Shown here in pieces: positions 15,760 to 16,160 of a stretch of DNA of 17,334 nt (position 1 is the first letter of the stretch; every line of letters begins with the position of its first letter). Source of the stretch: a virus. Its lineage: Duplodnaviria > Heunggongvirae > Uroviricota > Caudoviricetes. The translations under genes and the position numbers were made by a program. The notes below the pieces were generated by a model. It searched no databases and was not told the DNA's origin. It saw only the letters and a program-made list of their open reading frames with translations. The stretch lies in the IMG/VR virus record IMGVR_UViG_2690316086_000006, one strand, 5' to 3'.

Positions 15760-16160
15760 TAGCTAACCAACGAAGCTAAGGTTGGTAATTAAGGAGTTCT
15801 CCACGGGTGAGGTGGAGTGCGTGCGCCGGACACGGGTGAGCATCCGGCACTGACAGTTTACTGAAAGGATATTTCCCTGAAAAGTCAGACCATAACGCGA
15901 AAGCGCACGGCGAGGTAGCTGGTTCATAGATAGCCTGTCGTTAAATTTTCGTCGACCGTGCGCTTCCGGTTGTGGCAATCCGCGAAATGGCGCGGCGGTA
16001 AGTATGGCGGGGTTATTCCTTCCCCAGTTGAGGACACCGGGTTGTCAGGTTGACCATACGCTTAAGTGACAACCCCGCTGCAACGCCCTCTGTTATCAAT
16101 TTTCTGGTGACGTTTGGCGGTATCAGTTTTACTCCGTGGCTGCTCTGCCGCCCTTTTTAA

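Follow-up and report, generated by a model that had tools for sequence, protein, structure and literature searches.

DicF and its conserved leader in the untranslated spacer of a dicBF-type prophage operon

In the early-left operon of a lambdoid prophage lies a segment of some 370 nucleotides (nt) for which no protein product is apparent, and the locus raises the question of whether this DNA is a functional RNA and, if so, of what kind. The segment occupies positions 15760-16130 of the stretch of DNA analysed here (IMG/VR record IMGVR_UViG_2690316086_000006, Caudoviricetes; 17,334 nt, hereafter the window), and had been described, from the letters alone, as a GC-rich non-coding region with nested repeats that may form a structured RNA in the early-left transcript of a phage with no recognisable N protein. 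The general idea of this sequence-only reading is right, and it is borne out because the 96%-identical locus of Escherichia coli K-12 is transcribed and processed (PMC10448788), and because several of the helices covary. The segment is not one new small RNA (sRNA), however, but a composite of known parts: the 3' untranslated region (3'UTR) of ydfC, which is also the intercistronic spacer, an RNase III stem, the leader of a 190-nt precursor of the sRNA DicF (pre-DicF) and the first 30 nt of DicF itself. We therefore read 15760-16130, with a probability of close to 0.9, as the untranslated spacer of a ydfC-dicF-dicB (dicBF-type) early-left operon, which at the RNA level is the precursor of the Hfq-dependent DicF. 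The locus as such, the dicBF spacer with DicF, is already known; a conserved leader of ~100 nt is its sole previously undescribed part.

The identity of the locus is given by its close relatives. The window is a lambdoid prophage of E. coli O26/O103 and is 100% identical to NC_013361, while the segment 15500-16560 is 100% identical to prophages of O26:H11 11368, O103:H2 12009 and many other Shiga toxin-producing E. coli genomes. Related sequence is present in 4747 of the 5426 complete E. coli genomes, at a median of two places per genome. The ydfC-dicF-dicB locus of the K-12 prophage Qin shares 96% nucleotide identity with that of the window, and the two spacers (341 nt in the window, 340 nt in K-12) differ in length by a single 1-nt indel. 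In the RefSeq annotation of the identical locus the gene order is ydfC, dicB, a DUF1482 gene, an exonuclease and an integrase remnant, all on the plus strand, which is the early-left direction. The ydfC coding sequence (15541..15759, plus strand; phrog_1744) specifies a protein 97% identical to K-12 YdfC and ends where the spacer begins. The spacer is followed by dicB (16328..16516, plus strand), identified by RefSeq and by Pfam (PF05358, DicB, 125.5 bits), the product of which has diverged from K-12 DicB in its C-terminal half.

One of the known parts of the segment is DicF. The Rfam scan suggested in the sequence-only reading, run here with Rfam 15 over 15450-16400 at E<=10 with permissive filters, returned a full-length match to RF00039 at 16102-16153 (75 bits against a gathering score of 48, E 2.7e-15). 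Together with the K-12 annotation this places the 53-nt sRNA at 16101-16153, and the gene with its terminator U-tract at 16101..16158 on the plus strand; the hairpin and U-tract at 16136-16158 resemble an intrinsic terminator, and the sequence differs from K-12 dicF by one substitution. The boundary drawn previously at 16130 thus splits the DicF gene, the first 30 nt of which had been included in the segment unrecognised. The same scan found nothing within 15760-16100; apart from DicF it gave two matches, one to STnc100 that lies downstream of DicF and below threshold, and one to tsr32 that is due to chance. Despite its 75-bit score, dicF is unannotated by RefSeq and its Prokaryotic Genome Annotation Pipeline (PGAP) in both O26/O103 records examined (NC_013361.1 and NC_013353.1). 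DicF is regarded as an sRNA derived from the ydfC 3'UTR (PMC9438474). In K-12 it is processed from a polycistronic transcript, primer extension having revealed no internal promoter (Ragunathan et al. 2023, PMC10448788), and RNase E generates the 53-nt form or its 5' end (PMC10448788; PMC5069750). The 3' end is set either by the terminator or by an RNase III cut that leads to a 72-nt form (PMC5069750). The 190-nt species is stable and builds up in stationary phase, and the terminated 53-nt DicF is abundant in K-12 (PMC10448788). Hfq-dependent repression of ftsZ and other targets by DicF is documented for K-12 and for enterohaemorrhagic E. coli (PMC10448788, PMC5069750, PMC9438474).

Upstream of DicF the transcript is predicted to form a long stem-loop at 15890..15975 (plus strand; 22-23 bp, interrupted by a 1-nt bulge and a 1x1 loop and capped by a variable apical loop of ~40 nt), which we read as an RNase III processing site. 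Its core (15901-10/15956-65) is the 10-bp inverted repeat noticed previously. Both arms exist, although at slightly different places from those first given: AAGCGCACGG lies at 15901-15910 rather than 15905-15914 and CCGTGCGCTT at 15956-15965 rather than 15955-15964, and the repeat extends to 13 nt at 92% (pair I2). When the 371 nt were shuffled 500 times with dinucleotides preserved, perfect inverted repeats this long (10 nt or more, within 100 nt) appeared in 3.4% of cases and direct repeats of 10 nt or more in 3.8%, so that each repeat by itself is only mildly unusual. What backs the inverted repeat is that it extends to the 22-23-bp stem and that the stem covaries in relatives. In K-12, RNase III makes the 5' end of the 190-nt species, which is gone in an rnc mutant (PMC10448788). 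Counting 190 nt back from the K-12 DicF 3' end and transferring the position to the window leads to ~15963; this and the 813/814 mapping both land within 15963-15969, and the cut that yields pre-DicF is thus predicted to fall in the 3' arm of the stem.

The stem persists while its sequence changes. In relatives of the type represented by the loci L029, L050 and L066 the outer CA(C/U)AAC/GUUGUG pairs are retained and the inner arms are swapped for GAUGAGAGCAC/GUGCUCUCUUC, leaving a stem of still 18-20 bp around a loop of 40-130 nt of unrelated sequence. Among 31 close homologues, the conservation profile of which is otherwise too little diverged to be informative, the apical loop is the most variable segment (49% variable columns). 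Two loci, L026 and L074, are without the entire RNase III stem-loop. The junction in these two lies between the diverged direct repeats CGCGAAAGCGCACGGCG (15896-15912) and CGCGAAATGGCGCGGCG (15981-15997), which suggests that the start of the leader may have been partly duplicated to give the 5' arm of the stem, or that recombination between the two repeats may have removed the stem. A second long stem lies between dicF and dicB (16163..16310, plus strand), with a 19-bp perfect inverted repeat (16163-81/16292-310, pair I1) that reaches ~23 bp in the fold. Relatives of the L029 type contain a counterpart that differs in sequence and keeps the long stem. The 72-nt form of DicF is an RNase III product (PMC5069750), and the second stem is probably the site that gives its 3' end. 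The region 16151-16360 (plus strand), which includes the 19-bp inverted repeat and the motif CACCUGGAGGCACCAGGCACC, is the one matched by STnc100 (37.7 bits, E 1.9e-6), below the gathering score of 47.

Between the first stem and DicF lies the part of the spacer that has not been described before. The conserved leader (15980..16077, plus strand; ~100 nt), delimited by BLAST and modelled by the covariance model R1 and the alignment A4, contains four helices and a candidate pseudoknot. Helix P1 is a hairpin (15980-84/15991-95); P2 (15996-99/16036-39) encloses the variable hairpin P3 (16009-12/16022-25), for which at least five unrelated stem sequences occur; and P4 (16040-47/16067-74) closes an invariant 19-nt loop. 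In the candidate pseudoknot GUAUGG (16002-07) would pair with CCAUAC (16054-59); only one of its six pairs changes (U-A to C-G), and this change is limited to three sequences of the phage P1 type. The model was built from 67 distinct copies, obtained from 120 viral-contig loci, and A4 comprises 99 R1 matches (70 distinct). In A4, which was fitted to R1 and has to be read with this in mind, 96.3% of the cells are paired and seven pairs are changed on both sides; none of 500 shuffles reached the observed values, and slid controls gave 32-51% paired. Among homologues, therefore, the covariation check proposed in the sequence-only reading lends support to the helices. The loop of P3 retains a pyrimidine motif (UCCUU/CUCC; UUCCUU, CCUCC and CUCCUU) while its stem changes completely. 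This motif, in the hairpin at 16009-16025, resembles the anti-Shine-Dalgarno end of 16S rRNA.

The distribution of the leader also sets it apart. In BLAST searches 15980-16077 alone recurs in phages P1, P7, SJ46 and RCS47 and in 511 plasmid records, nearly all of them ~95-kb P1-like plasmids of Escherichia, Salmonella, Klebsiella and Shigella, and ~15969-16092 alone recurs in phage cdtI, Stx2c phages, Ayreon and 2H10. These segments recur separately, and the spacer is thus modular. The upstream context of the leader varies accordingly: it may be ydfC or ydfABC, operator-like repeats and a short hairpin, the cI gene (in cdtI) or the P1ban promoter. In BLAST each record matched the leader in one place, phage P1 included, and model R1 found no second copy in the window, HK022, the first 48 kb and the ban region of phage P1, cdtI or the Stx2c loci. 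A metagenome scan with GCGCGGCGGNAAGNNTGG, a pattern that is too short and GC-rich, yielded 120 loci of which four are real, all E. coli-like. In the literature, that on ban-operon transcripts included, we found nothing on the leader beyond 'untranslated region' and the label 'dicF-like' in phage P1; the P1 genome paper and Faubladier and Bouche 1994 lay outside this search. The AgvB/AsxR anti-sRNAs and the Pas sRNAs were considered as relatives and rejected, being located in a late-region moron site and not at the dicBF locus. We regard the leader as a modest, testable new lead.

A linker of 23 nt (16078..16100, plus strand) connects the leader to DicF and, according to the K-12 literature, carries the RNase E site between 16100 and 16101. 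The sequence GUUGUGG (15969-75) has two possible partners, the upstream arm of the RNase III stem and CUGCAAC/CCACAAC (16078-84); pairing with the latter would form helix P0. P0 is compatible with all lambdoid variants, through one-sided or wobble changes only, and we suggest tentatively that the RNA refolds into P0 once the RNase III cut has removed the upstream arm. The CACAAC motif 3' of the leader has some likeness to a GcvB target site.

What follows the linker is exchangeable. Every leader copy (~70 distinct) is succeeded within ~25-60 nt by a hairpin and U-tract, the sequence of which differs from one to another: the slot may hold canonical DicF, a truncated DicF, at least five unrelated sRNA-like units or, in phage P1, a plain terminator. 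Examples are CUUUGGCGGUACCAGUUUGUACACUUGCUUCCGGCUGGUACCGCUCUUUUU and a truncated DicF that retains the UUUUCUGGUGA seed. Among nine lambdoid variant loci scanned with Rfam, L044 alone scores as DicF. At the DicF position of L029, L050, L066, L113, L039, L019, L026 and L074 stand at least seven other hairpin and U-tract units that fall under the Rfam DicF threshold. These non-DicF units may be unannotated prophage sRNAs. A contig scan with a DicF pattern returned 13 loci, mostly from Escherichia, Shigella, Salmonella or contaminated metagenome-assembled genomes.

Four of the related loci also contain adjacent IsrK (RF01394) and C4 antisense RNA (RF01695) matches (L113 1171-1359, L074 4732-4920, L029 5052-5240, and L259, which is phage cdtI, 2040-2228). 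In L113 and L074 the pair lies just downstream of the leader-sRNA-stem unit, inside the N-terminus, as naively called, of the open reading frame (ORF) of an antirepressor-like gene. The IsrK/C4 pair is an immI-like module as in phage P1 and Gifsy-1.

The remaining, 5' part of the spacer (15760..15889, plus strand) is its least conserved segment. The minimum free energy (MFE) fold predicts four small hairpins here (15762-68/15780-86, 15799-804/15812-17, 15825-30/15843-48 and 15850-54/15884-88). The GCCGGA/TCCGGC (15825-30/15843-48) and ACCAAC/GTTGGT (15766-71/15781-86) hairpins singled out in the sequence-only reading are indeed present, and belong to this poorly conserved part. The segment is partly deleted or replaced in the relatives L019, L113 and L039, and query positions 1-120 are absent from many BLAST matches. 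The direct repeat CACGGGTGAG begins as given at 15802-15811, its second copy being at 15831-15840 and not 15832-15841 (over all the repeats, some coordinates in the original description were off by 1-4 nt); the ten letters match twice in the whole window against 0.04 times expected. The two copies bound a 29-nt duplication (15802..15840, plus strand). L019 has one copy and lacks the 29 nt, and the direct repeat would therefore be a dispensable indel rather than a functional repeat. Of the features listed from the letters, then, the inverted repeat is the one to which a function, as the RNase III stem, can be attached, and the description of the spacer as GC-rich was overstated (52.6% GC against 48.8% for the window). 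At 15875-84, CCCUGAAAAG looks like half of a lambda boxB, the complementary arm of which was not found in the window; the boxB-like CCCUGAAAA was rejected as a boxB, as its hairpin forms in L113 and L039 only and not in the window.

Taken together, these features are consistent with a processing pathway in which the polycistronic transcript would fold the 22-23-bp stem (15890-15975) and RNase III would cut its 3' arm at ~15963-15969, producing the ~190-nt pre-DicF. This precursor would consist of the compact, possibly pseudoknotted leader, the short single-stranded linker and DicF, and RNase E would cleave the AU-rich linker at 16100/16101 to free the 53-nt sRNA. Where transcription stops at the terminator of DicF itself (U-tract to 16158), this would provide the 3' end; where it reads through, RNase III would cleave in the 16163-16310 stem to provide it. 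The leader is most likely a scaffold for folding and processing, which would keep the RNase E site exposed and stabilise the 190-nt intermediate; it may also have a further role in read-through of the terminator. There is a precedent in MicL, in which upstream stem-loops direct precise RNase E processing of a 3'UTR-derived sRNA (Updegrove et al. 2019, via PMC9438474). The identity of the locus, DicF, the two stems that bracket the sRNA unit and the covarying fold of the leader are seen in the window and its relatives; both RNase III cuts and the RNase E cut are those described for the 96%-identical K-12 locus, and would apply to the window copy by homology.

It should be emphasized that several observations weigh against this interpretation. 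Expression and cleavage of this prophage copy are extrapolated from K-12, and the exact base at which RNase III would cut depends on a gel size and on a guessed K-12 transcription start. The window copy is without ydfA and ydfB and without a DicA-controlled dicBp of the K-12 type, and no plus-strand promoter-like (sigma-70-like) site was found in 15200-16400, so that the promoter of the operon was not located. The MFE fold of the precursor pairs DicF with the leader, contradicting the fold supported by covariation; plain MFE folds, whether of the 190-nt or of a 560-nt RNA, were nevertheless set aside, since the slot sequence varies and these leader-DicF pairings are unconserved. The viral loci were gathered with a pattern inside the P4 loop, which partly imposes the invariance of that loop, a bias of which the BLAST matches in phage P1 and plasmids are free. 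Finally, the near-invariant loops common to phage P1 and the lambdoid phages suggest a specific partner, which a passive scaffold would not need.

This last point leads to the most serious alternative, that the leader is mainly a cis-acting transcription element of phages lacking N, either a put-like or otherwise RNA-mediated antiterminator or an attenuator. As an antiterminator it would let polymerase pass the terminator that follows, so that dicB, exo, xis and int, or ban in phage P1, are expressed; the proposal concerns the role of the leader only, and is compatible with the processing pathway. It draws on position above all. In phage P1 some 30 nt separate the start of the leader from the C1-controlled P1ban promoter upstream, and a terminator, tRNAs and ban come after it; in cdtI its neighbours are cI on one side and the early-left genes (orf39, YfdQ ... 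xis) on the other, the place that pL-nutL-N occupies in lambda. In L074, L032 and L044 it comes after operator-like repeats and the short leader hairpin. RefSeq annotates no N-type antiterminator in the left operon of the window, an annotation that is also wanting in cdtI. A terminator-like structure stands close behind all of the ~70 distinct copies, HK022 putL likewise lies just 3' of PL (PMC9378689), and the invariance of unpaired nucleotides in unrelated phage types suggests a host partner such as RNA polymerase. When R1 was run against the whole HK022 genome with filters off, however, the best match (6.4 bits, E ~1) fell in the endolysin gene (37574-38050) and not at a put site, and a leader of ~100 nt with four helices and a pseudoknot bears little resemblance to the two stem-loops, ~70 nt in all, of put. 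There is, moreover, one leader copy per phage, with none in the rightward operon; in the window and in K-12 a distance of 0.5-0.9 kb, which includes ydfC or ydfABC, separates the leader from the promoter; and because terminated 53-nt DicF is abundant in K-12, termination is not abolished. We consider a role in transcription unlikely to be the main one of the leader.

It could also be argued that an independent sRNA is transcribed from a promoter of its own inside 15760-16100, as the 190-nt species is stable and accumulates in stationary phase (PMC10448788) and the leader of phage P1 is directly promoter-proximal. In K-12, however, an rnc mutant no longer has the 5' end of the 190-nt species, and primer extension gave no sign of a further promoter (PMC10448788), and the window has no plus-strand sigma-70-like site in 15200-16400, which together make this possibility very improbable.

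We attach still less weight to the spacer being a degraded or small protein gene. The minus strand does contain a 71-codon ORF (15763-15978), a 54-aa version of which (window 15763-15927) is called by PGAP as the hypothetical protein WP_001331716.1 in several genomes, among them O103:H2 12009. Neither Pfam nor PHROG has a family that matches the ORF, however, and its variable columns are spread evenly over codon positions 1, 2 and 3 (14/18/15) with no third-position excess. In-frame stops interrupt it in 3 of the 31 close homologues, the frame is broken by the 29-nt deletion in L019, its sequence is replaced in L113 and L039, and it runs antisense to the covarying RNA helices. The previous judgement that the stretch holds no convincing ORF is upheld by these family, codon-position and frame-conservation tests, which reveal no coding signal of a decayed gene, and the call of WP_001331716.1 appears spurious. 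Small plus-strand ORFs (a 10-codon GUG ORF between the direct repeats, MARR-stop and a 21-codon ORF at 16004) were rejected as unconserved, the latter two being disrupted in phage P1 and, by the 1-nt indel, in K-12. As improbable is the view that the inverted repeats are protein-binding palindromes in the DNA, operators or recombination sites: symmetric changes in both arms of a palindrome would mimic compensatory changes, the locus adjoins the immunity region and the arms of P4 form an 8-bp palindrome around a spacer of 19 bp, but P3 and the long stems, unlike operators, stay complementary though their sequences are wholly replaced, P3, P4 and the candidate pseudoknot contain G-U wobble variants that are meaningful in RNA only, and in K-12 there is a documented transcript that RNase III cleaves (PMC10448788).

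The surroundings of the operon differ among relatives. Upstream of ydfC, RefSeq annotates a cI-like helix-turn-helix gene, higBA and a small zinc-ribbon gene, the last at 15248-15448 on the minus strand, divergent from ydfC. Between this gene and ydfC, ACCACCTCGCCTGACGTGGTTAAAAGCAGGCA (15489-15520) corresponds to the short leader hairpin that is also present in L032, L044 and L074, the sequence of which, ACCACCTCGCCTGACGTGGT, recurs at 15489-15508 of the window, 5' of ydfC. In these relatives the hairpin comes directly after the operator-like repeats (TTGTTGTTGGGGA) and is succeeded by the RNase III stem or the leader, whereas the window has the divergent zinc-ribbon gene and higBA ahead of it instead of such repeats. 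At the other end of the window, in the late region of the prophage, three tandem tRNA genes (2115-2363, minus strand; 72.5, 68.9 and 58.2 bits) adjoin a full STnc100 match (1320-1492, minus strand; 104.7 bits). Genes for tRNAs in the late region are typical of Stx-type lambdoid phages, and STnc100 has reportedly been linked to PasD sRNAs in a 2026 preprint.

This analysis shows that the leader of the 190-nt precursor is a discrete covarying module that P1-type phage-plasmids have in common with many lambdoid prophages, and that the sRNA-like hairpins downstream of it differ. We propose, tentatively, that it belongs to an undescribed class of cis-acting phage RNA: a module that binds a host factor, heads repressor-controlled early operons (those of N-less lambdoid phages and P1 ban), is coupled to a terminator and carries an exchangeable sRNA slot, acting either in put-like read-through, with an unrelated fold, or as an sRNA-maturation cassette between RNase III stems. 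If the module does control read-through or maturation, it would explain how N-less phages express their early-left genes past a promoter-proximal terminator, and also how one regulatory sRNA can be exchanged for another in prophages while the processing context stays fixed. In practical terms, PGAP misses dicF in two O26/O103 records and sometimes calls a spurious antisense ORF.

The closest known system is the dicBF operon of K-12 Qin (Faubladier 1990; Balasubramanian 2016; Ragunathan 2023), which has the same genes, order and stems as the window. The window copy differs from it in having the zinc-ribbon gene and higBA between the repressor and ydfC, and its exonuclease and integrase remnants are still present. 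The 'dicF-like region' of phage P1, the leader of the ban operon (NC_005856 68791-68892), is 79% identical to 15980-16077 of the window and forms the same helices; its P4 and candidate pseudoknot show compensatory changes, and the leader is directly followed by a terminator. Phage P1 lacks a real DicF, however, its downstream hairpin being unrelated in sequence, and it is without the upstream RNase III-type stem and carries tRNAs and ban as cargo.

The put sites of HK022 (putL and putR), RNA-only processive antiterminators of an N-less lambdoid phage, appear to be like the leader in position only, each being a structured RNA placed early in a repressor-controlled operon without N, ahead of terminators. 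In contrast to the single leader, put is present in both the PL and PR operons, and there is no match in sequence or structure. The put RNAs act by binding the zinc-binding domain of the beta' subunit of RNA polymerase, and such an activity could be suggested for the leader by analogy only. The arrangement of lambda itself, with N as the first pL gene and a nut site of boxA and boxB, is not found in the window. RNase III stems are well known in the lambda N-leader, the early region of T7 and rRNA operons, where they are of ~20 bp or more, lie in untranslated parts of the transcript and are cut to leave defined ends. In contrast with these, the product here would be the precursor of an sRNA rather than an mRNA or rRNA, and two stems bracket the sRNA unit. 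The sRNAs MicL and CpxQ are derived from 3'UTRs and released by RNase E beside an upstream structure (PMC9438474), which is the mode of release of DicF. In DicF, however, the upstream structure is much larger, possibly pseudoknotted and conserved across phage families, and an extra RNase III step precedes the release of the sRNA.

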